NCBI GenBank assembly: GCA_965116475.1
Contig: OZ220691.1
Location: 448,001 to 512,000, forward strand
DNA length: 64,000 nt
Reading direction: 5' to 3'
From: Gemmatimonadota bacterium
GTDB lineage: Bacteria; Gemmatimonadota; Gemmatimonadetes; Palauibacterales; Palauibacteraceae
Position numbers and translations under genes: made by a program. This document shows positions 6,789-56,507 of this stretch, in pieces. Below the pieces are notes generated by a model. That model made no database searches, was not told the DNA's origin, and saw only the letters and a program-made list of their open reading frames with translations. How positions within the stretch are numbered: position 1 is the first letter of the stretch; the number at the start of each line of letters is the position of its first letter.

Positions 6789-6811
6789 TCCCACCTCACC
6801 GGCTTTGACTG

Positions 6812-6843
6812 CGTCCCCCCGGGCCGACCGGTTCGGGGGGGCG
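6812..6843 (+). other. 14-bp GC-rich hairpin between ACP and hydrolase, covering the hydrolase RBS region
   Basis: CGTCCCCCCGGGCC-gacc-GGTTCGGGGGGGCG pairs with G-U wobbles; it ends 7 nt before ATG 6851. Confidence 0.6.
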
Positions 6844-6850
6844 GCATGAC

Positions 6851-7762: not shown

Positions 7763-7766
7763 GCCC

Positions 7767-7793
7767 CGGCGGGTCCTTCTCCCGGAACCGCCG
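7767..7793. terminator. Hairpin between convergent hydrolase and permease genes
   Basis: CGGCGG-g-TCC-ttctccc-GGA-a-CCGCCG; no U-tract. Confidence 0.4.
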
Positions 7794-9560
7794 CTACGCG
7801 CCCCTGCCCTGTGTGGGCGAGACGACGACCCGGACGGTGACGATGTCCGTGTCGTAGTACTGCCGGTGCTGAACCGACGAAGCGAGGTGTCGCAGGAGGC
7901 GCAGCGACACTTCGCTCTCCGCCGAGGTCTCCTTCACCTCTCCGCTGAGCAGCGCGAGCCGATCCTGAAGGTTCTCGTCCCGCGGCGCCACCACGAATTC
8001 GAGCGCCACGTCACCGGCGTCGCGCCGGGCGGCCATGAGGAGTCGGCGCCGGGAAGGGTCGCCTGCGGGTGTCTGCGGCCGCGTCAGCGAGAGCAGCGCC
8101 TCCTCGGCGGCGGCGTCCAGGCGGTCCGCAATCTCCGCGTCCAGGCCGGTCTTCGCGGCGAACGTCCCGAGGAATTCGCGGATCTGCGGCAGCGCGGACG
8201 GACTGAACTCCGTCTCGATGCGGGCCCGGCGGGGTTCGGTCAGGCGCAGGAAGAGGGTCAGCAGGATCGCCGTGAAACCGCCGGCGTTCATCCCGTTGGC
8301 CAGCAGTCCGCCGGCGAAGGCGGACACCCGGTCGGGGAGGACGAGCCCGTACTGGAAGCTGACGCCGGTGAGGAAGGCGAGGCCGACGACGATGCCGTTG
8401 CGAACGTCGAGCCCGCCCTGCAGAACGATCTTGAGGCCGATCGCGAACAGCATCGCGAGCAGGACGGCCAGGTATGCCGCGAAGACCGGATCCGGGATCG
8501 CGAGCACGACGGCGAAGGCCCTGGGAAGAAAGGCGAAGGCGATGAAGGCGGCGCCGGCCGCCAGTCCCACACCCTGCGCCGCCACCCCGGTGAGTTGCGT
8601 GAGCGGCACGCTGGTCGTGGTCGCGCTCCCCGGCACCGTGCCGGCGCACCCCGCCACGAGGTTGGCCACGCCGTCCACAGCCACCGCTCCCTGCACGGCC
8701 CGGAAATCCGTCGGGCGACCGGACCGCCGCCACGACACCCGCTGGACGGCGACGGCGCTGCTCATCGTCCGGATGGCCGCGATCACGGCCACGAGCAGGA
8801 ACGAGGGCAGGAGCGTCCAGAAGGCCGGCCCGAATTCGAGGTCGAAACCCGGCGGGCGCGGGCGCGGAAGCGCGATCCAGGCCGCGCTCGCGATCCGCTC
8901 CAGGTCGTAGAGGCCGTGGTACCCGGCGACCGCGGTCCCCACGGTCACGCCGATGACCGGAGCCCACAGGCGGAGCGCCCCGGTGCCGCGCAGGGCGATG
9001 CATCCGATCAGGAGCACGGTGACGCCGAAGCTGAGGGCGGCCCCCGGCGGCGTGCCGGCGGCGGATCCGGTCCCAAGCAGCCCGGATACGAAGGGGAGGA
9101 CGGTCACGGGAATCAGCATGATGACCGTGCCGGAAACGGAGGGCGTCAGGATCCGCTGGAGGAGGGACAGCCGCCAGGAGAGAAGAAGCGGGACGAACGC
9201 GGCGACGACGACGAGTGTGGCGAGAAGGGCCGGGCCGCCCTCGGTGAGCGCCATGATGCTCGCCGGGATGAAAGCACCGGAGGTGCCCATCAGGAGGACG
9301 TGTCCGGCCCCGAAGCGCCCCGCCCGGACGGCCTGCAGCATCGTCGCCAGGCCGCAGACCGTGACGGACGCCAGCACGGCCCACGACAGATACTCCTCGT
9401 CAACGGCGGCGGCGCGCATCACGACCAGCGGGATCAGCACGATCGCCGCGATGTTCAGCACGGCAAGCTGAAGTCCGACGCCGAGCGCCAGGGGCGTCGG
9501 GGGCTTCTCGTCGGGCTGGTAGCGGACGCCGGCCCGGCCGTCCGCCGCGGTGGCGTTCAA
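7794..9560 (-). CDS. NCS2 (xanthine/uracil permease-like) transporter with a C-terminal degenerate HATPase/RsbW-like domain (SupE-like)
   Basis: RYQPDEKPP...GLQLA, TMLQAVRAGRFGAG..LMGTS, ILTPSVSGTVIMLI, many TM segments, then ~140 aa soluble tail. TTG start overlaps the PKS stop (TTGA). Confidence 0.8.
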   Translation of the reverse strand: MNATAADGRAGVRYQPDEKPPTPLALGVGLQLAVLNIAAIVLIPLVVMRAAAVDEEYLSWAVLASVTVCGLATMLQAVRAGRFGAGHVLLMGTSGAFIPASIMALTEGGPALLATLVVVAAFVPLLLSWRLSLLQRILTPSVSGTVIMLIPVTVLPFVSGLLGTGSAAGTPPGAALSFGVTVLLIGCIALRGTGALRLWAPVIGVTVGTAVAGYHGLYDLERIASAAWIALPRPRPPGFDLEFGPAFWTLLPSFLLVAVIAAIRTMSSAVAVQRVSWRRSGRPTDFRAVQGAVAVDGVANLVAGCAGTVPGSATTTSVPLTQLTGVAAQGVGLAAGAAFIAFAFLPRAFAVVLAIPDPVFAAYLAVLLAMLFAIGLKIVLQGGLDVRNGIVVGLAFLTGVSFQYGLVLPDRVSAFAGGLLANGMNAGGFTAILLTLFLRLTEPRRARIETEFSPSALPQIREFLGTFAAKTGLDAEIADRLDAAAEEALLSLTRPQTPAGDPSRRRLLMAARRDAGDVALEFVVAPRDENLQDRLALLSGEVKETSAESEVSLRLLRHLASSVQHRQYYDTDIVTVRVVVSPTQGRGA

Positions 9561-12500
9561 GCCCTTGTCTCGATCCAGTGGCGTCTGCGCTGGAACGGAT
9601 AGCCGGGCAGCGCGATCCGGCGCCTCGTCTCACCCGCGAACAGCCCCGCGAAGGAGATGGGAAGCCCGGCCTCGTACGCCGTCGCCACCGCGGCCGCGAA
9701 CGGTTCCTCCGCGCGTCCATCGGAGTCCGGCCAGTCGCGAAGCGCCATCGGGCCCGCGGACGAAGCCGTGCCGATGTCCATGACGAGGTCCACACCGAGT
9801 TCCGCAAGCGCCGCGGATGTACGGTCCGGATCCTCCTGCGCGCGCGCCTGTTCGCGCCAGTACGCTCCGTCCGGCACGCCGGCGGGATCCATCCTGTGGC
9901 CCGTCACCAGGCTGACGAGGGCCACGGCGGGCGGGGAAAACTCCATCCCCTGCGCCGCGGCTTCCAGGTCGTCGAGCGGATCGTGCGCGGATTCGCCCGC
10001 CTCCCCGTCGGGCACGGCGGCCGCCAGGCGCTGTTTCGGTCGGGCCATGGCGGCGCCCCTCGCCGCGGCGAGCCGCAGCCCGTCCGCCAGGCTGAAGACA
10101 CCGGCCGCCCAGCCCGCCGCCAGCTCGCCGACGCCGTGGCCCGCCACCGCGCCGGGGCGGATGCCCACGCTTGCCCACAGCGCCGCGAGCGCGCAACCGA
10201 GAGCGTACGCGGCCGGCTGCGCCCACTCGGGGTCCCGCAACGTGCCCTGCCCTCCCGCGCGACCGTACAGCACCGCGAGGAGCGATGCACCGTCGCGTTC
10301 TTCCCGCAGCACCGCGTCGCAGCGATCGAGGATGGCACGGACGACCGGCTCCCGGTCGTACAGATCCTGGCTCGGTCCGTCCTGGACGCTCGCTTCGCCG
10401 GCGAAGACGAAGGCCACCTTCGGAGCGGTGCCCGGTCCGGCGTCGCGGCGCCACTCGTCGTCGACCGCCCGCTCGGCGAGAGCGCCAAGTTCATCACGCA
10501 GCGACGTCGCGTCCTGGAACGGGAGGCCCGCGCGGTGGGCCAGGTGAGTCCGGCCGACACCCGCCGTCCACGCCACGTCCGCGAGCACCGAGGGGTCGGT
10601 GCCCCCCTCTGCGCCCCCCTCCTCCACTGTCTCGCTGCCGTGGCCCTCCAGCCACTCGAGGTACAGCCGCGCCAGGTCGCGCAACGCCCCGGGCGATTTC
10701 GCCGAGAGAGGCAGGAGGCGAGTCTCCCGGGGAGCGACGGAAGCGGCGACCGGCGGCGATCCCTCCGACTCGGGCACGAGAACTGGAACCGTGACCGCCG
10801 GGCCCGCGGGCATCCGGGCGCCGTTCAGCATCGAAGCGCGGTCCGGCCCGTCGTTCCCCTCGACGACGACGTGCGCGTTCGTCCCCGAAATCCCGAACGA
10901 ACTCACCCCCGCCCGGGGAGGTCGGTCGCCGTTCGGTGGCCACGCCACAGCCTCGTCCGTAACCCGCACCGGGAGGTCCTCCCAGGCCAGGTGGGGGTTC
11001 GGCTTGCGGAAGTGCAGCTGCTTCGGGATCCGCCCCTCGTTCAGGGCGAGGACGGCCTTGATCAGGCTCGCGATCCCGGCCGCGCATTCGAGGTGGCCAA
11101 TGTTCGTCTTCACCGAACCGATGAGGAGCGGCCGCTCCTCGTCGCGTTCCCGGCCGTACACGGCCGCGGCCGCCTGCACCTCGATCGGGTCGCCGAGATC
11201 GGATCCCACTCCGTTCGCTTCGAGGTAGTCCACCGACGCCGGCGGGACGCCCGCCTGCGCGAGCGCCTTCTCGATCACGCGTTCCTGGGCCGGCCCGTTC
11301 GGGACCGTGAGCCCCGCGCTGGTCCCGTTTTGGTTGACGGCGGAGCCGCGGATCACGCCCCAGATCCGGTCGCCGTCGGCCTTCGCGTCGGCGAGCCGCT
11401 TGAGGACGACCATACCGCAGCCCTCTCCGCGCACGAACCCATCCGCCGCCGCATCGAAACTGTGGCAGCGTCCGCTCGCCGAGAGCAGCCCGACCTCCTT
11501 CATGAAGGTGGCCGTCTCGGGCCACAGGATCGCGTTGACGCCGCCGACGAGGGCCAGTTCCACTTCGCCCTGCCGGACCGCGGCGGCGGCCTGGTGGACG
11601 GCCACAAGCGAGGAAGCGCACGCCATGTCGAGCGGGACCGCGGGACCGGTGAGACCGAGCGCGAAGGAGATCCGGCCCGCCGTCACGCTCATCGTCGTCC
11701 CCAGGTATCCGTGTCCGTGGCCCATGGCCGCGGCGAGATCCCGGTAGTCTCCCGTGGTGACTCCGGCGTAGACCCCGGTGTTCGTGCCCTTGAGTGGCGC
11801 GGGATCCAGGCCCGCATCCTCCAGCGCGTGCCACGTGGTCTCGAGCAGGAGGCGCTGGCGGGGGTCCATCATGCGCGCCTCGATCGGAGTGATCCCGAAG
11901 AAGCGCGCGTCGAACTTGTCGATGTCCTCCAGAAAGGCGCCGCGGCGCGCATCGTCATCCTCCGAGGCGGGATCTCCGGCCACGCCGTTCCAGGGGCCCG
12001 CGTCCCGGCGCCCGTCCGTGACCGCATCCGTCCCGGCTTCGAGTTGGCGCCAGAAGGCGGCGAGGTCCGGCGCGCCGGGGAAGCGGCACGCCATGCCCAC
12101 GATCGCCACACCATCGTCCATCACGCCGACGTCCGGGTCACGCTCCGATATCTGAACCCGGCCCTCGGGCGCGGGCTCCAGCACGGGCTCCGTGGCCGGC
12201 GCCTCGCCCCCATCCCCGAGCTCCTCGGCGAGGTGCGTGGCGAGTTCCGCGATGTTGGGATAGTCGAACACGAGCGTGTTCGGCGCCGTGTACGTTCCGG
12301 AGAACGCTCGGTTCAGCCGGTTGCGCAACTCCACGGCCATCAGCGAGTCCATCCCGAGGTCGAAGAACCCCACGGTGGGGGCCGGTGCCGACGACAGGCG
12401 CAACACGGCCTGGACCTCCCCCTGCACGAACGACACCAGGAGGTCCTCGCGTTCCGCCGCCAGCGTCCCCCGAAGCCGGGTGAGGACATCCTCGGAGGAG

Positions 12501-15500
12501 GCGTCGTCGCCCGCGCGGGCCTCGGACGCGGCGGAGAGCAGATCCTCGAGCATGGGCGGAGGATCCTCGACGGCCTCCTCGAACACATCCCAGTCCATCG
12601 ACATGACGACGGAGGTCGTCGCGTCCTGTCGCACGAGCCGGTCGAAGGCTCGCATGCCCTGCTGCGGCGTGAACCAGCGGCCCCCGAGGGCCGACCGCTG
12701 CCGGTCGATCCGGTCGCGCTGCTCCGCCGCCTCGCCGATGTCCGACCAGGCGCCCCAGGCGATGGCCTGCCCCGGGAGCCCCAGCGCGCGGCGGTGGCCG
12801 GCGAGCTGGTCGAGGAAGGCGTTGGCCGAGGCGTGGTTCGTCTGGCCCGGATTGCCCATGACGCCGACCCGGCTCGAGAAGAGCGTGAAGAAGTCCAGAT
12901 CGCGGTCCATCGTCGCGCGGTGCAGGTGCCAGGCGCCGAGGACCTTGGGCCACAGCACCCTCTCGAACCGCTCCCAGCTCTGGTTGGGGAGCGCGCCGTC
13001 CGACAGCACGCCCACGCTGTGGATCACGCCTCCGAGCGGCGGCAGATCGCGCTCGATGCGCGCCAGCATGCCATCGATGGCCCCCTGGTCCGTCATGTCG
13101 GCCAGTTCGACCCGGACCGTCGCGCCGCGCTGCCGGAGCGCCCGAATGGCTTCTTCGGCTTCGGGGTCCGGATCCCGGCGCCCGTTCAGCACGATCGCCC
13201 CGGCGCCCCGCGCGGCGAGCCACTCGGCCACCGCGATCCCGATCCCGCCCAGGCCGCCCGTCACCAGGTAGCTCCGGTCTCCGCGCAGCCCGCCCCGCAC
13301 GAGGGGAGGCGTCGTCACGACGATCTTCCCCAGGTGGCGGGCCGAGCGCATGAACGACAGCGCGGCGCCCGCTTCGGCCAGCGGCCATCGGCTGTGGATG
13401 ATGGGCTCGAGTTCTCCGGCCGCGAGACGGGCCATCAGGCCCCGCAGCACCCGCCCCACCCATGCCGGGTCCGTCTTCTTGAGCACGTCCAGTTCGAGGA
13501 TCCAGTAGCCCACGTCCGGACGCACGGCCGCCATCTCCGTTTCGGTGAGGATGTCGCGCCGCGCCATCTCGACGAAGCGTCCCCCCTGCCGGAGACAGGC
13601 GAGGCTCGCATCGATGAAGCCCTCGCTCGTGAGGCTGTTCAGGACCACGTCCACGCCCTCGCCGTCCGTCGCCTCGAGGATCTCATCTCCGAAGTCGGTC
13701 GTGCGGCTGTCGAACACGTGCTCGACGCCCAGCGAGCGCAGATACGCCTGTTTGGGGGCGCTGGCCGTTGCGAAGACCTCTGCGCCGGCCGCCTGCACGA
13801 GCTGGATCGCGGCCAGCCCGACGCCGCCCGCGCCGGCGTGCACGAGCACCCGCTCCCCGGCTTCCAGCCCGGACAGTTCGAAGGACAGCGCCGCCGACAC
13901 GAACGCGCTCGGCACCGTCGCGAGTCCGCTCACGGAGAAGTCCGGCGGCGCGGGGGCGACGAGTTCCTCGTGGGTGATCATCTGCGGCCCGAAGGCGCCG
14001 AATCCAAGCCCCACGATGTGATCGCCGACCGACACGGAAGAGACGTCGGAGCCCGTCTCGAGGATGCGGCCGCTCATCTCCCGTCCGAGCAGACCCTCCT
14101 CGATGAAGCCGAGCGACCGGAATACATCCCAGAAGTTCAGGCCGGAGGCCTCGACCGCGACGCGGACTTCCTGCGGCTCGAGCGGACGCGCCGGCAGGGG
14201 CTGCACGTGCGGCCGGTCGAACACGCCCCCCGGGTCCGGCGCCAGCACCCATTCCGTCTCTTCCGGGAACTCCAGGCGCTCCGCGCCGGAGCCCATCCTC
14301 ACGAGGCGCGCCACCCGACGGCTCCCCCGTCGGTAGGCGATGTGGTTCTCGGGATCCGGGTAGAGGAGTTCGTTCACGAGGTCCGGTTCCGGCGCCATCG
14401 AGCCGGGGTCGAGATCGAGCATCCGCGTCTGCAGGTGCGCCGCTTCCCGGGCCACGCCCTTGCCGAAGCCCCACACGGCGGCGCCGGCGAGTTCCCCACC
14501 CCGCTCGCGCTCGAGGATCTGGCCCCCCCGGGTGATGAACCACACGCCCTTCTCGGGGGTCAGATCCGAGTCGCCCACGCCCTGCACGAGCGCGAGCGCG
14601 CTCGCCACCGCGCCCTCGACGTCCTTCGCCATTTCATCGGTCGTGGCGCGCTCCCCGTGGCCATCCAGCGCCGCGAGATGCACGGCGCCGTGGAACGGAA
14701 CCTCCTCGGGCAGGCTCTCGATCAGCGACCGCCACGTCTCGCGGTTGCCGGTGTCCCGGGCGTCCCCGGCGTCCCCGGTGTTCGCGAGGACGACGGTCTG
14801 GTTCCGCGATCTCATCTCGGCGGCCAGCCTCTCCGCCACGCCGCCCTCGTCCGCCGCGACAACCCAGGCGCCCGCCGGCTCCGTCACCGTCGCCGGGCCC
14901 TGCGCCACGATCACGCCCTTGTCGAGTTTCATGTCGGGGTCCGACTCGTCGACGCCGAGGACTTCCACGGCCTCGAAGCCCGCGTCGCCGAGGGCCCGCC
15001 GCCATACGGGGGGACCGGCGAGCGCGTGGTGCGGACGGTAGTCGTCGGCGAAGCGCCACCAGCCGTCGAGCTGCCCGAACGTGAGGTCCATCCAGCCCAG
15101 GCCGGTGAGGTTCTCGAGCGCGACCAGTTGCCCGGACGGCGCCATGAGGTCCCGGCAGTGTCCGAGCGTTTCCTCCAGGTATCGCGTCGCGTGCAGCACG
15201 TTCGAGGCGATCATGAGGTCGTAGCCGTGGGCGTCGAAGCCCTGGGCGATGGGTTCCTTCTCGATGTCGAGCGGACGGTATTCGATGCACCCGCCGCCGT
15301 CGCCGAAGCGCGCCTCGGCCTCCGCGAAGAAGCCGGCGGAGATGTCGGTGTACACGTAGTCGAACCGCCCCTGCGGAAGCTCGGGCAGGACGGACGCGGT
15401 CGCCGACCCGGTTCCCGCGCCGACCTCGATCACCCGCAGCCGACGGCCATCGGGGAGCGAGGCCACCAGCGCCCGCACGGCCTCCGCCAGCATCTCGTTC

Positions 15501-18500
15501 GCCGCGCGCGCGACCGGGGCCTTCAGATACAGGTCGGCCGCCGTCGGCTCCCCGCTGCTGAACAGGAGCGTGAGGGGATCCGCCTCGCCGCGGAGCGCGT
15601 CGGCCAGCGCCTCGCCGGAGCGCCGGAAGAGGCCGACCTCCGTGAGCCCGTGGGCGTAGCGGCCGGCCATCCCGGTCGCGAACTCGTCGAGATCCCGAGG
15701 CAGCTGCTCCGGCAACGGGTCGTCCGGCCCTGCGAGGATGCGAAAGCCGTCGGCCGTCTCTTCCGCCACGCCGGACCAGGCGAGCATCTCGAACATGCGG
15801 CGGAAGAGGCGCCCGTGTTCCGGGAGCACGTCCAGCTCCTGCCGGAGTTGCTCCGGGTCTACCGTCTCCTCCGCCGTTCTCCGCCAGCCCAGTTCCTCGA
15901 GGGTCGCCAGGGCGCGGGCGTGCGACCAGCGCTCGAGATCGGCCAGCATGGCGTTTCGATCATCCGGATCGACGCCCGCGTCCTTCAGGTAGCCGCCGAA
16001 CGACTGCGCGCCCTCCGCGACGGCGGCGGGGCTCGGGAAGAAGTCCGCGGGAGCGACGCCCAACGGGAGTTCGCGCTCGCGCCATACGACCTCGTACAGC
16101 AGGTCCTTGATCCCCTCGACCGCCGAGAGGAGCGCCTGTCGCGTGGCCCGCTTCACCGTGTAGCCGCTCAGCCGGCCCAGCGGCGCGCCGTCAGGATCGT
16201 AGATGCGCAGTTCGCCGCTCAGCACCTCCGCGGGCTCGCCCCCTTCGGCTTCAGCTTCGCGCGATGCCTCGCTCAGGCGCACGTGGCACACCACCCGGTC
16301 GGGCAGCGGTCCGGCCAGCCACAGCCGCTCCCAGCCAAACGGGAGGTAGGTGGCGCCGCCCTCCGTTCCCGACACGTTGCGGGCCACGCCCACGGCCTGG
16401 AAGCAGCCGTCCAGAACGAGCGGATGCACGTCGAGGCCGTGGCCGGCCATCGCCTCCGGCAGCGACACCTCTGCCACCGCCTCTCCGGGACCGGACCAGG
16501 CTCTCCCCAGCGTGCGGAAGGACGGTCCGAGATCGACCCCCGTGTTCGCGCGGTGGCGGTAGTAGTCCGCCACCTCCACGGGTGAGAGATCGGCCTTCAG
16601 GCTCTCGATGTCGACGCGGTCGCTGTCTTCAGGGTCGGACACGCCGGCCGCCAGGCGGCCTTCCACGTGCACCGTCCACACGCCCTCGCGCCCACGGCTG
16701 TAGATCTGAACGGCGCGCGGCGCCGCCGGGTCCGGAGCATCGAGCACGACCTGCAGCGTCCGCCCCTCCGCACCCGTTTCGTCCCCACCCTCGTCCTCGT
16801 CCTCATCGAAGACGAGCGGGTTGTGCAACTGCATCTCCTCCACGACGACCGCTCCGCCCTCCTCGAGGAGAGAGGCCGCGATCGTCATGGCCCCGTACAG
16901 GGCGCCGGGCGCCACGACGCGGCCGAACACCCGGTGGTCGTCCATCCAGGAGGGATCCGCGGGGAACACGTCCGTCTCGAAGGCGATCTCTCCGCGGGCG
17001 GACTCGTGACGGGCGCCCAGCAGCGGGTGACCGGCGCTTCCACGACGGCGTTTCGGCGGCGCGAGCCAGTGGCGGACGCGCTGGAACGGATAGCTGGGAA
17101 GCGAGATGCGCCTCCGCGTCTCCCCGGCGAAGAGCCCGGCGAAGCGAATCGGAAGGCCCGCCTCGTACGCCGCGGCGACCGCCCCGACAAAACCGTCCAC
17201 GTCTTCGGAATCGGACGTATCGGGCGCACGTGGCGCATCGACTGGCGGCGCGGCGAGGCTCGACAGGACCGCCGGGGCCGGCGCCTGCGGCGATTCCGGC
17301 CAGGCGGAGGCCGCCATCGGGGCCAGCAGCGACCGGGGACCGACCTCCAGCACCAGGTCGACGCCGAGGTCCGCCAACGTCTCGACGCCCTGGGCAAAGG
17401 CCACCGGCTCACGCGCGTGTCGCCTCCAGTAGGCCCCGTCCAGCAACTGTCCGGCTTCCACGGCCCGGCCCGTGAGGTTGCTGACGACGGTGAGGGCCGG
17501 AGGTTCGATCGCGATCCCGTCGAGCGACGCCGCGAGTTCGTCCAGGATGGGATCGACGAGGGCGCTGTGGAACGCCCGCTTCGTGTTCAGACGCCGCACC
17601 CGGACACCGTCCGCCTCGAATCGCTTCGAGACGGCCTCGATGTCCGCGGCGGGCCCGCTGACCACCTGGTGACTCCCGTTGTAGCCCGAGATACTCAGCC
17701 CGGCGCCGGACGAGGCCGCGTTCACGGTCTCGACCGCCGACGCCACCGGCTCCGGCGGCGCGAACACCGCCGCCATGCCGCCGTCCTCCATGCGCGACAT
17801 CAGCGCCCCGCGGGCGGCGGCGAAACGCATCCCGTCCTCGAGGGAGAGGACGCCCGCCGCCTGCGACGCGGCGAGTTCGCCGATACTGTGCCCGATCACG
17901 ACGTCGGGGCGGACACCGAGGCTCGCCCACAGCGCCGTCAGCGCGCATTCCAGCGCGTAGAGCGCCGGCTGCTCCCACGCCGTGTCCCCGAGGTCCCCGG
18001 TTCCTCCGGGCCGGCCGAACATGACGTCGAGCAGCGAGGCGCCTCTCTCCTCGATGAAGGCCGCCTCGCAGCGGTCCAGAACGGCCCGCGCCACCGGCTC
18101 GCTCTCGTGGAGCGCCTCTCCCATGCCGGCCCATTGGCTCCCCTGCCCCGTGTAAGCGAAAGCCACCCGGGCCGGAGCCGCGGCCGCCGTCGCCGCCGCC
18201 GTCCCCGCTTGCGCGTCCCCGCCCGCCTCGGCCAGCGCGAGAAGTCGCTCCCGCAGCGACGCCGCGTCCCCGAAGACGACGCCCGCGCGGTGGTCGAAAT
18301 GGGCCCGTCCCACTCCCGCCGTCCACGCCATGTCCGAGAGGAGCGGACCGGAGGCGAGGTCCCCGGACGGAGATCCCCCGGCATGCTCATCCAGCCACGA
18401 CACGTACCGCCCGGCGAGGTCGCGGAGCGCGCCGTCCGATTTGCCCGACAGCGGAAGCAGGCGCGTCGCGCGCGGCTCGACGCCCTCCGGAACCGGCACA

Positions 18501-19918
18501 TCCGCCACCGTCGCCGGCATCGAAGCCGCCACCGGCAGCCCGGCGCCCGCCGCCCAGGCCCCGTCGGCCGGGGCTGCGTCGGGGGCTGCATCCGGGGCGC
18601 GGTATTCCTCCATCACGAGATGGGCGTTCGTCCCGGAGATCCCGAACGAGTTGACCCCCGCGCGTCGCGGGCCCTCCGTACGGCGCGGCCACTCCACCAT
18701 CGACGAGGTCACCCGCAGCGGGAGACGATCCCAGTCGAGGCTCGGGTTGGGATCGTGGAAATGGAGGTGCTTCGGGATCACGCCCCGGTGCAGGACCAGC
18801 GCCGCCTTGATCACGCCCGCCACGCCCGCGGCCGATTCCAGGTGCCCGATGTTCGTCTTCACCGAGCCCATGAGAAGGGGATGGTCGGCGTCCCGTCCCT
18901 TCCCGTAGACCGCGACCACCGCGTTGGCCTCGATCGGGTCGCCCACCGTGGTGCCCGTCCCGTGGGCCTCCAGGTAGTCGACCTCCAGCGGAGAGACGCC
19001 CGCGTCCGCGAGCGCGGTCTGCATCACCTCTTCCAGCGCCGGCGTGTGCGGCACCGTGAGCCCCGTGCTGGCCCCGCCGTGGTTCACCGCCGAGCCGCGA
19101 ATCACGGCCCAGATCCGGTCGCCGTCCGCCGCCGCCTCGCTGAGCCGCTTGAGGACGACGACCCCGCAGCCCTCGCCCCGCACGTATCCGTTGGCCGACG
19201 CGTCGAAGGTCTTACACTGCCCGTCTGGCGACAGCATCATCGCGTCTGCGCGGAGTTCGTAGATGCGCCCGTTGAGGATCGCCTGCACGCCGCCCGCGAT
19301 CGCGAGGTCCGCCCTGCCCTGCTGCAGGTCCGCCACCGCGTCGTGCACCGAGACCATGGAGGACGCGCACGCGGCGTCGACCGCCTTCGCCGGCCCCCGA
19401 AGCCCGAGCACGAAGGAGACCCGGCCGCTCGTGCCGTTCAGATTCGTGCCGCTGAGCGCGTAGAGACAGCTGGCGGGTTCGGCGGGCTTGCTCGAATCGA
19501 CGACAAGCATCCGGTACTCGTCGTTGCTGATCCCCGTGTAGACGCCGGTGAGCGTCTCCCTCAGTCCATCGGGATCGATCCCCGCGTCCTCGAGCGCCTC
19601 CCAGGTCGTCTCGAGCATCATGCGCTGCTGCGGATCCAGCAGCTCCGCCTCGACCGGCGAGATCCGGAAGAAGGCGTCGTCGAACAGGTCGATGTCGTCC
19701 ACGAAGGCGCCGAAACGGCAGCCGTCGCTCGTGACGGCGTTGTCCCCGAAGATCTGGCCCCAGCGTCCTGCGCCGGAACCCGGGACCCCCTCCTGGACGG
19801 AGTTCCCGCCCTCCTCCAGCAAGCGCCAGAACGCCGGAATGCTCGACGCGCCGGGAAACCGGCACGCCATGCCGATGATGGCGACCGGCTCTGAGCGCCG
19901 CCCGTTTCGATCTGCCAT
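9557..19918 (-). CDS. supA: Type I polyketide synthase, SupA-like: KS-AT-DH-cMT-ER-KR-ACP-KS0-AT0 (~3453 aa)
   Basis: KS1 DAACASS/HGTGT/GHLE; AT1 GHSIG, RAFHS; DH HRVFGRVVAP, LDGCFQ; MT EVGAGTG, NVLHAT; ER HAGAGGVG; KR TGGLGGIG; ACP GMDSL; KS2 DMACASS/NGVGS; AT2 GHGVG. ATG 19918 follows an AAGGGGA RBS. Confidence 0.93.
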   Translation of the reverse strand: MADRNGRRSEPVAIIGMACRFPGASSIPAFWRLLEEGGNSVQEGVPGSGAGRWGQIFGDNAVTSDGCRFGAFVDDIDLFDDAFFRISPVEAELLDPQQRMMLETTWEALEDAGIDPDGLRETLTGVYTGISNDEYRMLVVDSSKPAEPASCLYALSGTNLNGTSGRVSFVLGLRGPAKAVDAACASSMVSVHDAVADLQQGRADLAIAGGVQAILNGRIYELRADAMMLSPDGQCKTFDASANGYVRGEGCGVVVLKRLSEAAADGDRIWAVIRGSAVNHGGASTGLTVPHTPALEEVMQTALADAGVSPLEVDYLEAHGTGTTVGDPIEANAVVAVYGKGRDADHPLLMGSVKTNIGHLESAAGVAGVIKAALVLHRGVIPKHLHFHDPNPSLDWDRLPLRVTSSMVEWPRRTEGPRRAGVNSFGISGTNAHLVMEEYRAPDAAPDAAPADGAWAAGAGLPVAASMPATVADVPVPEGVEPRATRLLPLSGKSDGALRDLAGRYVSWLDEHAGGSPSGDLASGPLLSDMAWTAGVGRAHFDHRAGVVFGDAASLRERLLALAEAGGDAQAGTAAATAAAAPARVAFAYTGQGSQWAGMGEALHESEPVARAVLDRCEAAFIEERGASLLDVMFGRPGGTGDLGDTAWEQPALYALECALTALWASLGVRPDVVIGHSIGELAASQAAGVLSLEDGMRFAAARGALMSRMEDGGMAAVFAPPEPVASAVETVNAASSGAGLSISGYNGSHQVVSGPAADIEAVSKRFEADGVRVRRLNTKRAFHSALVDPILDELAASLDGIAIEPPALTVVSNLTGRAVEAGQLLDGAYWRRHAREPVAFAQGVETLADLGVDLVLEVGPRSLLAPMAASAWPESPQAPAPAVLSSLAAPPVDAPRAPDTSDSEDVDGFVGAVAAAYEAGLPIRFAGLFAGETRRRISLPSYPFQRVRHWLAPPKRRRGSAGHPLLGARHESARGEIAFETDVFPADPSWMDDHRVFGRVVAPGALYGAMTIAASLLEEGGAVVVEEMQLHNPLVFDEDEDEGGDETGAEGRTLQVVLDAPDPAAPRAVQIYSRGREGVWTVHVEGRLAAGVSDPEDSDRVDIESLKADLSPVEVADYYRHRANTGVDLGPSFRTLGRAWSGPGEAVAEVSLPEAMAGHGLDVHPLVLDGCFQAVGVARNVSGTEGGATYLPFGWERLWLAGPLPDRVVCHVRLSEASREAEAEGGEPAEVLSGELRIYDPDGAPLGRLSGYTVKRATRQALLSAVEGIKDLLYEVVWRERELPLGVAPADFFPSPAAVAEGAQSFGGYLKDAGVDPDDRNAMLADLERWSHARALATLEELGWRRTAEETVDPEQLRQELDVLPEHGRLFRRMFEMLAWSGVAEETADGFRILAGPDDPLPEQLPRDLDEFATGMAGRYAHGLTEVGLFRRSGEALADALRGEADPLTLLFSSGEPTAADLYLKAPVARAANEMLAEAVRALVASLPDGRRLRVIEVGAGTGSATASVLPELPQGRFDYVYTDISAGFFAEAEARFGDGGGCIEYRPLDIEKEPIAQGFDAHGYDLMIASNVLHATRYLEETLGHCRDLMAPSGQLVALENLTGLGWMDLTFGQLDGWWRFADDYRPHHALAGPPVWRRALGDAGFEAVEVLGVDESDPDMKLDKGVIVAQGPATVTEPAGAWVVAADEGGVAERLAAEMRSRNQTVVLANTGDAGDARDTGNRETWRSLIESLPEEVPFHGAVHLAALDGHGERATTDEMAKDVEGAVASALALVQGVGDSDLTPEKGVWFITRGGQILERERGGELAGAAVWGFGKGVAREAAHLQTRMLDLDPGSMAPEPDLVNELLYPDPENHIAYRRGSRRVARLVRMGSGAERLEFPEETEWVLAPDPGGVFDRPHVQPLPARPLEPQEVRVAVEASGLNFWDVFRSLGFIEEGLLGREMSGRILETGSDVSSVSVGDHIVGLGFGAFGPQMITHEELVAPAPPDFSVSGLATVPSAFVSAALSFELSGLEAGERVLVHAGAGGVGLAAIQLVQAAGAEVFATASAPKQAYLRSLGVEHVFDSRTTDFGDEILEATDGEGVDVVLNSLTSEGFIDASLACLRQGGRFVEMARRDILTETEMAAVRPDVGYWILELDVLKKTDPAWVGRVLRGLMARLAAGELEPIIHSRWPLAEAGAALSFMRSARHLGKIVVTTPPLVRGGLRGDRSYLVTGGLGGIGIAVAEWLAARGAGAIVLNGRRDPDPEAEEAIRALRQRGATVRVELADMTDQGAIDGMLARIERDLPPLGGVIHSVGVLSDGALPNQSWERFERVLWPKVLGAWHLHRATMDRDLDFFTLFSSRVGVMGNPGQTNHASANAFLDQLAGHRRALGLPGQAIAWGAWSDIGEAAEQRDRIDRQRSALGGRWFTPQQGMRAFDRLVRQDATTSVVMSMDWDVFEEAVEDPPPMLEDLLSAASEARAGDDASSEDVLTRLRGTLAAEREDLLVSFVQGEVQAVLRLSSAPAPTVGFFDLGMDSLMAVELRNRLNRAFSGTYTAPNTLVFDYPNIAELATHLAEELGDGGEAPATEPVLEPAPEGRVQISERDPDVGVMDDGVAIVGMACRFPGAPDLAAFWRQLEAGTDAVTDGRRDAGPWNGVAGDPASEDDDARRGAFLEDIDKFDARFFGITPIEARMMDPRQRLLLETTWHALEDAGLDPAPLKGTNTGVYAGVTTGDYRDLAAAMGHGHGYLGTTMSVTAGRISFALGLTGPAVPLDMACASSLVAVHQAAAAVRQGEVELALVGGVNAILWPETATFMKEVGLLSASGRCHSFDAAADGFVRGEGCGMVVLKRLADAKADGDRIWGVIRGSAVNQNGTSAGLTVPNGPAQERVIEKALAQAGVPPASVDYLEANGVGSDLGDPIEVQAAAAVYGRERDEERPLLIGSVKTNIGHLECAAGIASLIKAVLALNEGRIPKQLHFRKPNPHLAWEDLPVRVTDEAVAWPPNGDRPPRAGVSSFGISGTNAHVVVEGNDGPDRASMLNGARMPAGPAVTVPVLVPESEGSPPVAASVAPRETRLLPLSAKSPGALRDLARLYLEWLEGHGSETVEEGGAEGGTDPSVLADVAWTAGVGRTHLAHRAGLPFQDATSLRDELGALAERAVDDEWRRDAGPGTAPKVAFVFAGEASVQDGPSQDLYDREPVVRAILDRCDAVLREERDGASLLAVLYGRAGGQGTLRDPEWAQPAAYALGCALAALWASVGIRPGAVAGHGVGELAAGWAAGVFSLADGLRLAAARGAAMARPKQRLAAAVPDGEAGESAHDPLDDLEAAAQGMEFSPPAVALVSLVTGHRMDPAGVPDGAYWREQARAQEDPDRTSAALAELGVDLVMDIGTASSAGPMALRDWPDSDGRAEEPFAAAVATAYEAGLPISFAGLFAGETRRRIALPGYPFQRRRHWIETRA

Positions 19919-19974
19919 TGGTTTATGGTCCCCTTGCCGGCCGGCTTCCCCGCACCGGACATTTGTTCGGCCGC

Positions 19975-20003
19975 GTGTCACCCGAAAGCAGTGTCACCCG
20001 AAA
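19975..20003. promoter_or_regulatory. 13-bp direct repeat GTGTCACCCGAAA x2 in the divergent PKS/creatininase promoter region
   Basis: Copies at 19975-19987 and 19991-20003 (16-bp period), followed by a degenerate TGACGTGAAATA. Confidence 0.5.
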
Positions 20004-46202: not shown

Positions 46203-46637
46203 ACGCTGGTCTTCGATACCAATGTGCTTGTGTACGCCGCGAGCGAGACCTCGGAATTCCACATCCCCTGCCGGCGGCAGCTGGACGAAGCGCGCTGCGG
46301 GCCATCACCGGCCTTCCTCACATGGAGCGTCTGCTACGAGTTCCTGCGCGTGACCACTCACCAGCGTGTGATGCCGTCACCTTGGCGACCCGCAGAGGCC
46401 GAGCGCTTTCTTTCGAAGCTTCTGACGTCGATGGGGATCCGCCTGTTGACCGCGACGCCGCGTCACGCGGCGATCCTCGCGCGAACGGTCGAGGAGCTTC
46501 CGGAAATCCGCGGCAACCAGATGCACGATCTGCACACGGCCGTTCTGATGCGCGAGCACGGCATCAGCCGCATATGCACGCGCGATGCGGGTTTTCGCCG
46601 CTTTCCGTTCCTTACGGTGATCGACCCTGCGGCGTGA
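46203..46637 (+). CDS. vapC: VapC (PIN-domain) toxin with a non-canonical start (ACG 46203 or CTG 46206)
   Basis: In frame (T)LVFDTNVLVYA..., YEFLRVTTH, GNQMHDLHTAVLM.EHG...TRDAGF.RF. In-frame TGA at 46185; the first canonical start (GTG 46224) lies after the DTN aspartate. Confidence 0.8.
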   Translation, partial: TLVFDTNVLVYAASETSEFHIPCRRQLDEARCGPSPAFLTWSVCYEFLRVTTHQRVMPSPWRPAEAERFLSKLLTSMGIRLLTATPRHAAILARTVEELPEIRGNQMHDLHTAVLMREHGISRICTRDAGFRRFPFLTVIDPAA

Positions 46638-52359: not shown

Positions 52360-52584
52360 ATGGAAGTTTCCAGGATCACGGCCCGCGGGCAGACGACGAT
52401 CCCGAAGAGGATCCGCGAACGGGCAAACCTCTCGGAGGGCGATCTCCTGTCGTTCGAGATCGAGGACGACCACCTGGTGGTCCACAAGATTTCGCCCGAT
52501 CGGGACGGCTACCTGGACGCCGTATCCGAAGGACTGAACGAATGGGTCTCCCGTGAGGATGAGGACGCATGGCGTGACCTTTGA
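52360..52584 (+). CDS. AbrB/MazE/SpoVT-family antitoxin
   Basis: SRITARGQTTIPKRIRERANLSEGD; acidic tail EWVSREDEDAWRDL; AAGGAG RBS. Confidence 0.85.
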   Translation: MEVSRITARGQTTIPKRIRERANLSEGDLLSFEIEDDHLVVHKISPDRDGYLDAVSEGLNEWVSREDEDAWRDL

Positions 52585-52906
52585 GCCGTACGACGTCGTC
52601 GTCGTTCCCTTCCCCTTCACAGACAGACTCGCGTCCCGGCGGAGGCCGGCGCTCATCGTCTCGTCGGAGCGTTTCCAGGCGGATCACGAGCAGTCGATCC
52701 TGGCGATGATCACGACGACCCGCTCGGAGTGGCCGAGCGACGTGTCGATCCGACGCTGGCGGGAAGCCGGCCTTCATGTCCCGTGCAGCGTTCGCTTCAA
52801 GCTCTTCACCCTCGACAACTCCCTGATCCTCCGGAGAGTCGGCAGGCTGGCCGAGCGTGACCGCGAGGCAGCGCGCAAGGCCCTGACCCGCGTGCTTGCG
52901 AGCTGA
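52574..52906 (+). CDS. PemK/MazF-family toxin
   Basis: YDVVVVPFPFTD...RRPALIVS, LAMITT, GL..PCSVRFKLFTLD; overlaps the antitoxin end. Confidence 0.85.
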   Translation: MTFEPYDVVVVPFPFTDRLASRRRPALIVSSERFQADHEQSILAMITTTRSEWPSDVSIRRWREAGLHVPCSVRFKLFTLDNSLILRRVGRLAERDREAARKALTRVLAS

Positions 52907-53038: not shown

Positions 53039-53818
53039 ATGAGTGACGTTCTTCTCGTCGAGAAGCTCGACGGACATATCGCCAAGCTCACGGTCAACCG
53101 GCCGGAGAAGCTCAACGCGCTGAACGGCGCCGTGCGCTGCGCCATCTTCGGCGCGCTCGACCGCCTCGCGGCCGACGACGATGTGCGCGTCGTCGTCATC
53201 ACGGGGGCGGGGGACCGCTCGTTCATCGCGGGCGCCGACATCTCGGAGTTCAAGGACGCGCGACCCGTCGAGCAATACCGCAGCATGACGCGCGGCGACA
53301 TGTACAGCGCGATCGAGTCCTTCCCCAAGCCCGTCATCGCCATGATCAACGGCTTCTGCCTCGGCGGCGGCTGCGAACTCGCCATGTCGTGCGACATGCG
53401 CGTGGCCTCGACCGCGGCCCGCATCGGCCAGCCGGAGATCAACCTCGGACTCATCCCCGGCGCCGGCGGCACGCAGCGGCTCCCGCGCCTGGTCGGCGAG
53501 GGCTGGGCGATGCGGCTCGTGATGAGCGGCGAACTGATCCCGGGGGAGAAGGCGGAGCAGATCGGCCTCGTGGAAGCGGCCGTCGCGCCCGAGGCACTCG
53601 AGGGTCACGTGATGGAACTCGCCTCGAGCATCGCGAGCCGCAGCCCGGTCGCGCTTCAGGCCGCCAAGGAGTCGATCCTCGCCGCGCGGCGGATGCCGCT
53701 GGATGAGGGGTTGAAGTTCGAGCGAAGCTGGTTCTCGCTCCTCTTCTCGACCGACGACATGGCGGAGGGCGTGGGCGCCTTCCTGGAGAAGCGGAAGCCC
53801 GAGTTCAAGGGCTCCTGA
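53039..53818 (+). CDS. Enoyl-CoA hydratase (crotonase)
   Basis: NRPEKLNAL, FIAGADI, INGFCLGGGCELAMSCD, GQPEINLGLIPGAGGTQRL. Confidence 0.93.
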   Translation: MSDVLLVEKLDGHIAKLTVNRPEKLNALNGAVRCAIFGALDRLAADDDVRVVVITGAGDRSFIAGADISEFKDARPVEQYRSMTRGDMYSAIESFPKPVIAMINGFCLGGGCELAMSCDMRVASTAARIGQPEINLGLIPGAGGTQRLPRLVGEGWAMRLVMSGELIPGEKAEQIGLVEAAVAPEALEGHVMELASSIASRSPVALQAAKESILAARRMPLDEGLKFERSWFSLLFSTDDMAEGVGAFLEKRKPEFKGS

Positions 53819-53921
53819 GGGAGCTCCTGAGGGGGACGGCCCGGCGCGGCTGCAGCCGGTGGCGGTGCGGCTGCGAGCGCGCGGCGGGCCGGTGTCGCAA
53901 CGCTAGTGCGGCGCCACGACG

Positions 53922-54176
53922 CTAGTGCGGCGTAACGACGCTGACGAAGCGGCGGCCTCGCCGGCGGTGAAATTCGACCTGTCCATCGGCGAGCGCGAAC
54001 AGCGTGTCGTCCTTCCCGCGGCCGACGTTGCGGCCCGGGTGGAAGGGCGTGCCCCGCTGCCGGATGAGGATGTTGCCCGCGATCACGTGCTCGCCGCCGT
54101 ATTTCTTGACGCCGAGATACTGCGGGTTCGAATCGCGTCCGTTGCGGCTGGAGCCGACACCTTTCTTGTGCGCCAT
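53922..54176 (-). CDS. rpmA: 50S ribosomal protein bL27
   Basis: [24 protein letters not shown]...[10 protein letters not shown]; 1-nt TGATG overlap with the rplU stop. Confidence 0.97.
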
Positions 54177-54817
54177 CAGTCGCCTTCCTTCGCCGCAATG
54201 GCCTTGTCCACGTCGCTCTTGAGGATGCGGCCGTCCTTGCCCGTCCCCTCGATCGCGCCCAGGTCGAGTCCGTGCTCCTCCGCCAGCTTCCGCGCGACCG
54301 GCGTGATGTCCACCGGCGCCGGCTCGGCCGCCTCGGGCTCGGGAGCCGCTTCGGCTTCCGGAGCAGCCTCGGCCTTCGGGGCGGCCTTGGGAGCAGCCTT
54401 GGCCTTCGGCGCGGCCTTGGGCTTCGGAGCGGCCTTGGGCTTCGGAGCGGCTTCCGGCTCCGGCGCCGCGGCCGCCGGCTTCGCCGCCGCTTCCAGCGGC
54501 TCGTCGGGCAGATCGATGCCGACGATGCGGATCTCCGTGTAGCCCTGGCGGTGCCCCTGCTTCCGCCGGTAGCCCTTCCGCCGCTTCATCTTGTAGACGA
54601 TGATCTTTTCGCCGCGCCCGTGGCTCACGACCTCGGCCGCGACCGAGGCGCCAGCCACGCACGGGGCTCCGACGTGAACATCCCCGTCGTGCTCGGCGAG
54701 CAGCACGTCGTCGAACTTGACCGTGTCCCCGGGCTCGGCCTCGAGGGAAGGGATGCGGAGTACCGCGTCCTCCACCGCTCGAAACTGCTTCCCCTGGGCC
54801 TTGAAAATCGCGTACAT
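54176..54817 (-). CDS. rplU: 50S ribosomal protein bL21 with C-terminal Ala/Pro/Lys/Glu linker and E3-binding (PSBD) domain
   Basis: [12 protein letters not shown]...[24 protein letters not shown] (aa 1-103); linker aa 104-170; [32 protein letters not shown] (aa 172-203). Confidence 0.95.
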
Positions 54818-54860
54818 ATCGTCAGATCACCACTGGAATTCCACGAATTGCGAGCCGCTG

Positions 54861-54889
54861 AGACTACCCGCGGCGGGCGGATGTGTCAA
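54861..54889 (-). promoter_or_regulatory. Sigma70 promoter of rplU-rpmA
   Basis: Minus strand TTGACA (54889-54884) - N17 - TAGTCT (54866-54861). Confidence 0.7.
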
Positions 54890-54953
54890 ACAAAACCGCG
54901 CGCATCCGACCATCGTGACGGCCGGCGACGGCCGGCTTCACGAGAGACCGCAC

Positions 54954-56507
54954 TCAGCTCGAAATGTACTTCTTCGTGACGTCGGTGTCGGCGGGATGGG
55001 CGAGGAGCCGGAACTCGTCGAGGCCGAGCAGCGGGTCATCGCGCAGATCGAGCGCGATCCCGCCGCTGCTTCTCATTCGGCCCAGGAATTCGCGCTCGCG
55101 CTCCAGCAGGTGGAGAGCGATCACCGGGTGCGTGAGGATCGTGATCCCGTTCTCCCGGCCGGCCGCGGCGACCCGGTCCAGCGCCCGCTCCAGCCGGCGC
55201 ACCACCGTCTCGGAGGCGAGGATTCTCCCCGCGCCCTCGCAGTACGGACACGGTTCCATCATCCGCTGGTGCAGGCTGGGGCTCACGCGTTGCCGGCTGA
55301 GCTGCAGCAGTCCGAGTTCGGAGAGCCCGAATGCCTTCGTGCGTGCGCGGTCGTGGCCCAGCAGCGTCCTCATCTGCTGCACGACCCTGTTGCGCGACTC
55401 CTCCTCGTTCATGTCGATGAAGTCGATGACGATGATCCCGCCCACGTCGCGCAGGCGGAGCTGGCGCGCAATCTCTCCCGCCGCCTCGAGGTTCGTCTTG
55501 AGGATGGTCTTCGCCGGGTCGCGACGGCCCGTGTAGCGCCCCGTGTTCACGTCGATCGAGACGAGGGCCTCGGTCTGCTCGATCACGACGTGGCCGCCCG
55601 ATTTCAGGTGCACGGTGCGGCGGAACGCGCGCCGGATCTCCTCCTCGATTCCGAACTCGTCGAAGATGGGCGCGGCGCCGTCGTACCGGCTCACCCGCTC
55701 GAGCAGATCCGGGTCCACCTGTCCCAGGTAGGAGCGGATCTCGTGGTACAGCTCCGCCGAATCCACCGTGAGCAGGTCGATCCGGTCGCTGAACAGGTCG
55801 CGGATGATGCCGGACGTCAGCCGCGCGTCCTGGTACACCAGCGCCGGCGCCTTCATCCCGTTCTGCCGGCGCCGCACCTTCCGCCACGTCTTGCGCAGCG
55901 ACTTGAGTTCCCGCTCGCAGGCTTCCTTCGTCATCTCCTCGCCCACGGTCCGGACGATGACGCCGCCGTCGTCGCCGAGGACGTCCCGCACCATGCGCCG
56001 CAGGCGGACGCGCGTCTCCCGGTCGCCGATCTTGCGGCTGACGCCGACATGGGAGGAGTCGGGGATGTACACGAGGAAGCGGCCGGGGAGGGAGACCTGC
56101 GTCGTGACGCGGGCCCCCTTCGTGCCGATGGGTTCCTTCACGACCTGCACGAGGAGCGTCTGATCCTTGCGGATCGCCTCCTCGATGCGGGGAGCGTTCT
56201 CGTTGCGCGCCCGCCGGCGCCCGCCGTTCCGTTCCCGTCCCCCGTTCCCCTCGCCGTCGGGATCTTCGTCGGGCTGTAGATCGGAGGCGTGCAGGAAGGC
56301 GGACTTCTCGGCGCCGATGTCGACGAAGGCGGCTTGAAGTCCGGGCACGATCGCCTCGACCGCACCGAGATAGATGTCGCCGGCGATGCGGCGCTCGTCG
56401 GGCCGTTCGTACATCAGTTCGACGAGCTTGCGGTCTTCTACGATCGCGACCCGTTTCTCGCGGGTCGTGGCGTTTACGACGATCTCGCGGCGCACGTCAG
56501 CGCGCAC
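54954..56507 (-). CDS. rng: Rne/Rng family ribonuclease (RNase G-sized)
   Basis: GDIYLG...PGLQAAFVDIG, QVVKEPIGTKGAR, SIDVNTG, LRLRDVGGIIVIDFIDM, CPYCEGAG; GTG 56495 is an alternative start. Confidence 0.92.
   Translation of the reverse strand: MRADVRREIVVNATTREKRVAIVEDRKLVELMYERPDERRIAGDIYLGAVEAIVPGLQAAFVDIGAEKSAFLHASDLQPDEDPDGEGNGGRERNGGRRRARNENAPRIEEAIRKDQTLLVQVVKEPIGTKGARVTTQVSLPGRFLVYIPDSSHVGVSRKIGDRETRVRLRRMVRDVLGDDGGVIVRTVGEEMTKEACERELKSLRKTWRKVRRRQNGMKAPALVYQDARLTSGIIRDLFSDRIDLLTVDSAELYHEIRSYLGQVDPDLLERVSRYDGAAPIFDEFGIEEEIRRAFRRTVHLKSGGHVVIEQTEALVSIDVNTGRYTGRRDPAKTILKTNLEAAGEIARQLRLRDVGGIIVIDFIDMNEEESRNRVVQQMRTLLGHDRARTKAFGLSELGLLQLSRQRVSPSLHQRMMEPCPYCEGAGRILASETVVRRLERALDRVAAAGRENGITILTHPVIALHLLEREREFLGRMRSSGGIALDLRDDPLLGLDEFRLLAHPADTDVTKKYISS

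Follow-up and report, generated by a model that had tools for sequence, protein, structure and literature searches.

The 64-kb window analyzed here (64,000 nucleotides, positions 448,001 to 512,000 of contig OZ220691.1, from a Gemmatimonadota bacterium of the Palauibacteraceae) contains an rplU gene whose product, ribosomal protein bL21, is extended to 213 amino acids (aa) by a flexible linker and a C-terminal peripheral-subunit-binding domain (PSBD), the module through which E2 chains of 2-oxoacid dehydrogenases dock their E3 (dihydrolipoamide dehydrogenase) or E1 component. The fusion of bL21 and PSBD is real and conserved, purifying selection acts on the module as strongly as on the ribosomal fold, and closely similar modules are found on two other gene-expression proteins, the initiation factor IF-2 and NusA. 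From these sequence comparisons we infer that the module docks a protein, and that the partner would be common to the three hosts, since their modules are so alike. A docking arm on the 50S subunit, IF-2 and NusA, holding a shared partner that need not be E3 or E1, is the reading we prefer, at about even confidence.

A preliminary description of this DNA, made from its letters, had reported a 213-aa rplU reading frame in which an L21 fold is followed by an E2-like flexible linker and a PSBD. The frame is present as described, and the 37-residue peptide quoted for the PSBD corresponds exactly to residues 171-207 (54307-54197). The parts of the gene, in window coordinates, are:

54176..54817, minus strand: rplU, encoding the bL21-linker-PSBD fusion protein of 213 aa (open reading frame list, Pfam and NCBIfam; coordinates include the stop codon)
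54515..54817, minus strand: L21 fold, residues 1-101 (PF00829, E=6.7e-37; AlphaFold2 pLDDT 86-95)
54308..54514, minus strand: flexible Ala/Pro/Lys/Glu arm, residues ~102-170 (AlphaFold2 pLDDT <50 for 108-165; composition)
54327..54469, no strand assigned: 18-nt tandem repeat array, 8.3 copies with 74% matches, encoding AAPKPK-type repeats (Tandem Repeats Finder)
54179..54307, minus strand: C-terminal PSBD module, residues 171-213 (PF02817, AlphaFold2 helices, Foldseek, PDB sequence matches)

The scan with profile hidden Markov models (HMMs) that had been proposed matched both Ribosomal_L21p and E3_binding above cutoff. PF00829 covers residues 1-101 with 126.2 bits (cutoff 27; profile positions 1-99 of 99), and PF02817, the PSBD family, covers residues 171-203 with 56.6 bits (E=3e-15; cutoff 23.7; profile positions 3-35 of 36). 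The protein also passes TIGR00061, the NCBIfam L21 equivalog model (118.4 bits against a cutoff of 43.7), and is bL21 both by profile and by its rplU-rpmA operon context. NCBIfam models of E2 chains (SucB_Actino, PRK11854 and others) cover only the linker and PSBD (residues 97-210), and their scores of 20-56 bits are far below their own cutoffs of 378-722, as expected for a fragment. Pfam found no match in the window protein to the lipoyl domain PF00364 or to the 2-oxoacid_dh domain PF00198; having neither a lipoyl nor a catalytic domain, it is no E2 acyltransferase.

The structural models agree with this division of the protein. In the AlphaFold2 model of full-length bL21, which was built on 53 homologues, the predicted confidence (pLDDT) is 86-95 in the L21 core, below 50 in the linker (residues 108-165) and 82-87 in the C-terminal domain, where helices are predicted at residues 173-182 and 200-212 with the loop GTGxxGR between them. 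The tail was also modeled alone, with a mean pLDDT of 81. When the tail model was compared with the PDB using Foldseek, the top 36 matches were all PSBDs of E2 or E3BP chains (TM-score 0.6-0.85, root-mean-square deviation about 1 Å), several of them solved in complex with E3 or E1; the Foldseek E-values are weak, the best being 1.5e-3, because the domain is very short. Sequence comparison of the tail with PDB chains at E<=0.01 gave 34 matches, comprising 33 E2 chains and one alpha/beta-hydrolase with an N-terminal PSBD. Profile, fold and linker context all place the tail in the PSBD family, as the preliminary description had held.

To find out how widely the architecture is kept, rplU orthologues were surveyed, as had also been suggested, among proteins of at least 117 aa, and the 120 best of 1497 homologues at E<=1e-3 were examined. 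PF00829 and PF02817 occur together in 119 of the 120, and the lone exception, P0043, has 156 aa, comes from a 939-nt contig and is probably cut off. All 12 homologues with a named organism are from Gemmatimonadota (Ca. Palauibacter, Gemmatimonadales and unclassified members), and Gemmatimonadota is again the commonest phylum in an ESM Atlas cluster, all 233 members (100%) of which have both domains. Most of the 121 proteins, the window protein included, carry a single PSBD (107 proteins), with two copies in 11, three in 2 and none in 1. Conservation in the 121-row alignment is as high in the tail as in the L21 core, with T172 present in 121/121 and G191, G193, G196, R197, L199, K200 and D202 each present in 120/121. 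The ratio of nonsynonymous to synonymous substitution rates (dN/dS), calculated for the window gene and its close relatives L001-L005 (NG86, ratio of means, 15 pairs of 6 genes), was 0.104 for the module and 0.094 for the L21 core. These findings leave very little room for an artefact, whether by mis-assembly, by a frameshift fusion or by an untranslated 3' extension. Of 120 homologues, which come from independent assemblies that include complete chromosomes, 119 keep the continuous reading frame, the tail is under purifying selection, and rpmA is coupled to rplU at its stop codon, where the two genes overlap as TGATG (54174-54178), in line with the translational coupling noted earlier. We found no point in support of an artefact and regard it as the least probable of the explanations considered.

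When the tail (residues 165-213) was compared with longer proteins, the top three matches were IF-2 chains carrying PF02817 together with the IF2_N, GTP_EFTU and IF-2 domains, and these ranked ahead of seven true E2 chains that are 59-68% identical to the tail. The modules in IF-2, one or two per chain, lie in the Glu/Ala-rich, acidic variable region that follows the N-terminal IF2_N domain and precedes the G domain. A search with this variable region gave five more IF-2 chains with modules, and one NusA (domains NusA_N and KH_5) with a module at its C-terminus. A further scan, which took one genome from each GTDB species and used an alignment of the modules alone together with the patterns [IV]EGTGKDGR and [AV]AxELA[EA]EH[GD], yielded at least 599 pattern matches and 211 confirmed relatives. 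Among the best 80 of these 211 loci, the host is E2-type in 62 (labeled Pseudomonadota, Latescibacterota, Gemmatimonadota and others), bL21 in 14 (13 labeled Gemmatimonadota and one 'uncultured bacterium') and IF-2 in 3, and the remaining locus is a 41-aa fragment at a contig end. Altogether the IF-2 carriers are found at L014:2-2407, L017:3437-6289 and L032:3605-6232 and as proteins P0121-P0123, P0280-P0283 and P0285, and the NusA carriers at L017:940-3027 and L032:1503-3506 and as protein P0286, with the module near the C-terminus; the taxa of the IF-2 and NusA proteins were taken from locus titles.

In both L017 and L032 the gene for NusA with its PSBD lies directly upstream of infB (six-frame scan with the module HMM; NusA identified by Pfam), and one metagenome-assembled genome (MAG), CAZSKS01, has modules on all three hosts, namely two on bL21 (L007), one on NusA and two on IF-2 (both L017). 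The NusA and IF-2 modules of L032 are 86% identical to each other and share an unusual Pro, and each is 69-72% identical to its L017 counterpart. This likeness could reflect gene conversion between the neighboring genes, or co-evolution with one partner.

The modules on the three gene-expression proteins resemble one another more than they resemble those of E2 chains. We compared 194 unique 36-residue modules, of which 115 came from bL21, 15 from IF-2, 1 from NusA and 63 from E2. Mean identity was 0.69 between bL21 and IF-2, 0.71 between bL21 and NusA and 0.80 between IF-2 and NusA, compared to 0.52-0.53 between any of these and E2, where the highest single pair reached 0.75. Mean net charge was -3.3 for bL21 modules, -5.6 for IF-2 and -5 for NusA, compared to -0.6 for E2. 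Thr at column 1, Glu at column 6 and Leu at column 28 are diagnostic of the non-E2 subfamily, and the loop Arg at column 26 is present in 100% of the family. The columns that distinguish the groups are:

Column 1: Ser in 79% of E2 modules; Thr in 100% of bL21 and 100% of IF-2/NusA modules
Column 2: Pro in 98% of E2; Asp in 43% and Pro in 37% of bL21; Gly, Ala or Asp in IF-2/NusA
Column 5: Arg in 84% of E2; Arg in 65% of bL21; Glu in 56% and Arg in 38% of IF-2/NusA
Column 6: Lys or Arg in 97% of E2; Glu in 66% of bL21; Glu in 100% of IF-2/NusA
Column 28: Thr in 68% of E2; Leu in 100% of bL21 and 100% of IF-2/NusA

The module of the window protein (TPVARKL...) is an E2-like variant within this subfamily, with a net charge of -1 and with R176, K177 and R197 present; 28 of the 120 module-bearing bL21 proteins have this P..RK type.

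The differences between the groups bear on whether the arm performs the canonical task of a PSBD, which would be to dock E3 or E1 on the 50S subunit and so tie translation to central metabolism and redox state. Docking of E3 or E1 is the only documented role of the PSBD among the matched solved structures (1ebd, 1w85, 2eq7, 3rnm and 9h2i), and the window module, whose identity with E2 modules reaches 75%, retains Pro173, Arg176, Lys177 and the invariant Gly-Arg197, in addition to its E2-like charge. However, column 6, which is basic in nearly all E2 modules, is predominantly Glu in bL21 and invariably so in IF-2 and NusA, and Arg at column 5 becomes less frequent in the same order. Columns 5, 9 and 26 align with Arg135, Arg139 and Arg156 of the Geobacillus E2p module 2pdd, which we take to be the 'electrozipper' residues that contact E3; in the window protein these positions hold Arg, Glu and Arg, so that the equivalent of Arg139 is Glu. 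In addition, E3 would have to keep binding the basic E2 modules of the same cell, and no E2 or E3 gene lies within the 64-kb window around rplU. Because most members have Glu at the helix-1 positions where E2 modules are basic, and because their net charge is acidic, the sequences suggest that a partner other than E3 or E1 fits the family as a whole better, while for the clade of the window protein E3/E1 is a live candidate, since Pro-x-x-Arg-Lys is retained there. Overall, we consider canonical docking on the 50S subunit possible but doubtful.

The linker that carries the module was examined in the same homologues. In the window protein it consists of 68 aa, with 27 Ala, 17 Pro, 10 Glu and 9 Lys (65% Ala plus Pro) and pLDDT below 50, and among the 120 homologues its length ranges from 20 to 110 aa (median 55) and its net charge from -46 to +13. 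The window protein and its close relatives L001-L005 have identical or nearly identical modules and total lengths of 177-213 aa, a difference of up to 36 aa, as expected from slippage of the 18-nt repeat. Variation of this kind is what would be seen if the arm were passive, that is, an entropic or solubility 'bristle', or a folded cap guarding a low-complexity tail, with no specific partner. On this explanation the module would be tolerated at the permissive termini of abundant proteins and spread by recombination of repetitive GC-rich linker DNA, with which the tandem array in the linker DNA, the presence of one to three modules per bL21 and the occurrence of modules on many unrelated proteins are also consistent. 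A cap, however, would not need the near-invariant surface residues E190, K194, K200, S201 and D202, nor would a passive arm account for a dN/dS as low as that of the ribosomal core or for a subfamily-specific signature that extends across three hosts. We therefore judge a passive arm to be unlikely.

The preliminary description had offered as an alternative that the small helical fold might have been repurposed for binding RNA or DNA. All three hosts do act on or beside nucleic acids, but the modules on each of them are net acidic, as are the linkers of IF-2 and NusA, and the significant Foldseek matches of the tail include no nucleic-acid-binding structure. The acidic charge in particular argues against nucleic-acid binding, which we consider very improbable.

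Several observations also weigh against a docking arm that holds a shared partner. Co-occurrence of the module on three hosts within one genome was seen in one MAG only, and among the best 80 of 211 loci there was no IF-2 or NusA module from Ca. Palauibacter, the lineage to which the window belongs, although a negative of this scope is uninformative. PSBD-like modules are also present on unrelated proteins (a kinase, and small proteins with no assigned function), so that general mobility of the module might partly explain its occurrence on bL21, IF-2 and NusA. The E2 modules in the identity comparison were fetched with patterns derived from the module itself and are biased toward query-like sequences, so that typical E2 modules would, if anything, lie farther away than the values given. 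In a tree of 125 modules and 36 columns, for which 68 of the 115 unique bL21 modules were thinned out and one X-containing E2 module was dropped, 60 of 62 E2 modules fall on one side, opposite all bL21, IF-2 and NusA modules, among which those of IF-2 and bL21 intermingle; the branch dividing E2 from non-E2 modules has a support (SH-aLRT) of only 31, the two E2 modules on the non-E2 side have long branches, and a single non-E2 clade is neither rejected nor demonstrated by the approximately unbiased (AU) test (p=0.49). With 36 columns, too few for the purpose, the tree gives no direction of transfer. Finally, ordinary short bL21 may exist in some Gemmatimonadota, and the fusion cannot be called phylum-wide on the basis of a search that excluded proteins below 117 aa.

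Taking these points together, we favor a model in which the L21 fold would anchor the protein in the 50S subunit, and a disordered Ala/Pro/Lys/Glu arm, of variable length through the 18-nt DNA repeat that encodes it, would bear the folded PSBD at its end. The arm of 68 residues could, by our estimate, reach roughly 20 nm if extended, which would let the module explore a large part of the 50S surface or keep a partner close to it. The module may have been captured from an E2 chain, the nearest E2 relatives being E2o-type, and may then have spread within Gemmatimonadota onto the N-terminal variable region of IF-2, in one or two copies, and onto the C-terminus of NusA. It would thus serve as a tethered 'recruitment arm' through which each of the three, the 50S subunit, IF-2 and NusA, could bind one and the same soluble partner. 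The fuller proposal, in which the same E2-derived tethered module gives all three a single common partner, be it E3/E1 or a new hub protein, is put forward tentatively.

A well-characterized domain for docking proteins is thus found, together with a swinging arm of its own, on a core protein of the 50S subunit, and its sharing with IF-2 and NusA gives a testable hypothesis of three machines with one partner. If that partner were E3 or E1, the arm would link the pyruvate/tricarboxylic acid cycle node and redox metabolism directly and physically with transcription and translation; if it were a new hub protein, the consequence would be co-localization of RNA polymerase-NusA, the initiation factor and the 50S subunit. 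With either partner, a shared-partner arm would represent a previously unknown, phylum-specific layer of gene-expression organization. Were the partner not E3 or E1, the PSBD, so far treated as a dedicated part of 2-oxoacid dehydrogenases, would have to be seen as a general mobile docking module, to which the kinase and the small carriers also point.

These other carriers were encountered in a tail-only search of 1.84 billion representatives, ranked by summed scores. This ranking favored E2 chains with several PSBDs, so that the best 150 were mostly E2 chains with 2-4 PSBDs and the search gave no nearest neighbors of the tail. The Ser/Thr kinase P0131 has three PSBD modules, and PSBD-like modules in 1-4 copies were found in P0131, P0132, P0140, P0171, P0172, P0218, P0253, P0138, P0145, P0181, P0232, P0246, P0259 and P0266. 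Many modules of the kinase and of the small and mid-sized carriers start with the non-E2 'T-D/G-A-A', and the remainder of the small and mid-sized carriers matched no Pfam family above cutoff (only sub-threshold matches at E<=0.01) and no PHROG. Judged by this distribution, PSBDs are apparently more mobile than the name of the domain suggests.

Among the E2 loci recovered in the genome scan, three features were recorded. The lpd gene directly downstream of a Gemmatimonadota E2o (L009:4929-6344) has one internal stop codon, due either to a sequencing or assembly error or to decay into a pseudogene. In the MAG at L043, labeled 'Gemmatimonadetes bacterium' and with an intact E3 gene at 6568-7977, sucB and lpd are 90-96% identical to those of the Latescibacterota-labeled loci L035, L044, L045, L048, L051, L054 and L060, and this may reflect a wrong label or a recent gene transfer. 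An Acidimicrobiia MAG (L021:3233-6271) contains a 1013-aa frame with two lipoyl domains, a PSBD, an E2 catalytic domain and a lipoate-protein ligase A/B catalytic domain, which may be a fusion of E2 and lipoyl ligase or two genes joined by extension of the reading frame.

Within the window, the bL21 module is the sole PSBD module (module HMM, all six frames). The genes and signals adjoining rplU are:

53922..54176, minus strand: rpmA, encoding bL27 (overlap read in the sequence, Pfam, NCBIfam; the product matches the Pfam L27 family with E=4.7e-39)
54861..54889, minus strand: TTGACA-N17-TAGTCT, a putative promoter with a weak -10 (read in the sequence; not called by the consensus scan)
54954..56507, minus strand: RNase E/G-family gene upstream of rplU (Pfam RNase_E_G, E=2.8e-98)

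The order acyl-CoA dehydrogenase, RNase G, rplU, rpmA is common to the window and to L001, a complete Ca. Palauibacter chromosome whose bL21 tail is 98% identical to that of the window. An own promoter for rplU had been proposed earlier, and both hexamers are indeed in the sequence (TTGACA at 54889-54884 and, after 17 nucleotides, TAGTCT at 54866-54861). The promoter call itself is unsupported, since the -10 agrees with TATAAT at 3 of 6 positions and a consensus promoter scan of 53700-55100 gave 0 promoter-like sites. Promoter/terminator scanning and Rfam found nothing in the rplU leader apart from one chance-level Rfam match. Elsewhere in the window, a single open reading frame of 3474 aa (9557-19981, minus strand) has a gene-like GC content at third codon positions of 0.89, and a PIN-domain gene lies at 46224-46637. 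A PemK/MazF-type toxin gene (52553-52906, plus strand; Pfam E=9.9e-13) is preceded directly upstream by ~75 codons that read by eye as an AbrB/MazE-type antitoxin-like small frame, and together the two look like a type II toxin-antitoxin pair.

The closest known counterparts of the bL21 tail are the PSBDs of E2 chains, such as Geobacillus stearothermophilus E2p (1ebd, 1w85, 2pdd) and E. coli E2o (1bbl, 1bal), with which it has in common the Pfam family, the fold, the GTGxxGR loop and the placement on an Ala/Pro-rich flexible linker. In contrast to these, its host is ribosomal and lacks lipoyl and catalytic domains, and the modules have Thr for Ser at column 1, frequent loss of Pro at column 2, Glu for Lys/Arg at column 6, Leu for Thr at column 28 and an acidic net charge. 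A PSBD on a host other than a catalytic E2 has precedents in E3BP/protein X (2f60, 1zy8) and in the alpha/beta-hydrolase with an N-terminal PSBD (7qjm_A), although these hosts, unlike bL21, IF-2 and NusA, are presumably parts of 2-oxoacid or acetoin dehydrogenase systems. A further parallel is the nominal mitoribosomal protein MRPS36/KGD4, a member of the 2-oxoglutarate dehydrogenase complex that, according to PMC9974300, acts in eukaryotes as an E3 adaptor functionally replacing the PSBD and has no prokaryotic orthologues. MRPS36 has neither an L21 fold nor a PSBD, so the link with the bL21 fusion is conceptual only.

Long forms of bL21 are represented by the NCBIfam models NF008916 and NF008915 (PRK12278 series), in which, as in the window protein, the L21 fold is followed by an Ala/Pro/Lys-rich extension. 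The match to NF008916 covers residues 1-179 (model positions 1-173 of 223) and stops before the PSBD, and the window protein scores below both cutoffs (134.8 bits against 193 for NF008916 and 91.8 against 281 for NF008915), having the low-complexity extension alone in common with these families. PRK12278 is described in CDD as an 'L21/unknown domain fusion'. To our knowledge, a lineage-specific extension of a bacterial ribosomal protein seldom consists of a folded domain whose function is known. In the literature searched we found no description of a PSBD on bL21, IF-2 or NusA, which agrees with the earlier remark that no characterized L21-PSBD fusion was known to its author, and a term search of the main text of the Palauibacterales genome paper found no mention of L21 or of ribosomal proteins. 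What is new is the recognition and interpretation of the fusion and not the sequence itself, since the architecture is already visible in automatic annotations. In its working principle the bL21 arm would most resemble the bL12 (L7/L12) stalk, in which an anchor and a flexible hinge carry a small globular domain that recruits partners. The two have a hinge and a C-terminal domain in common and no relation of sequence or fold, and bL12 binds translational GTPases at the factor-binding site, whereas bL21 lies on the solvent side of the 50S subunit. In its construction, the bL21 arm is like the swinging arm of E2.

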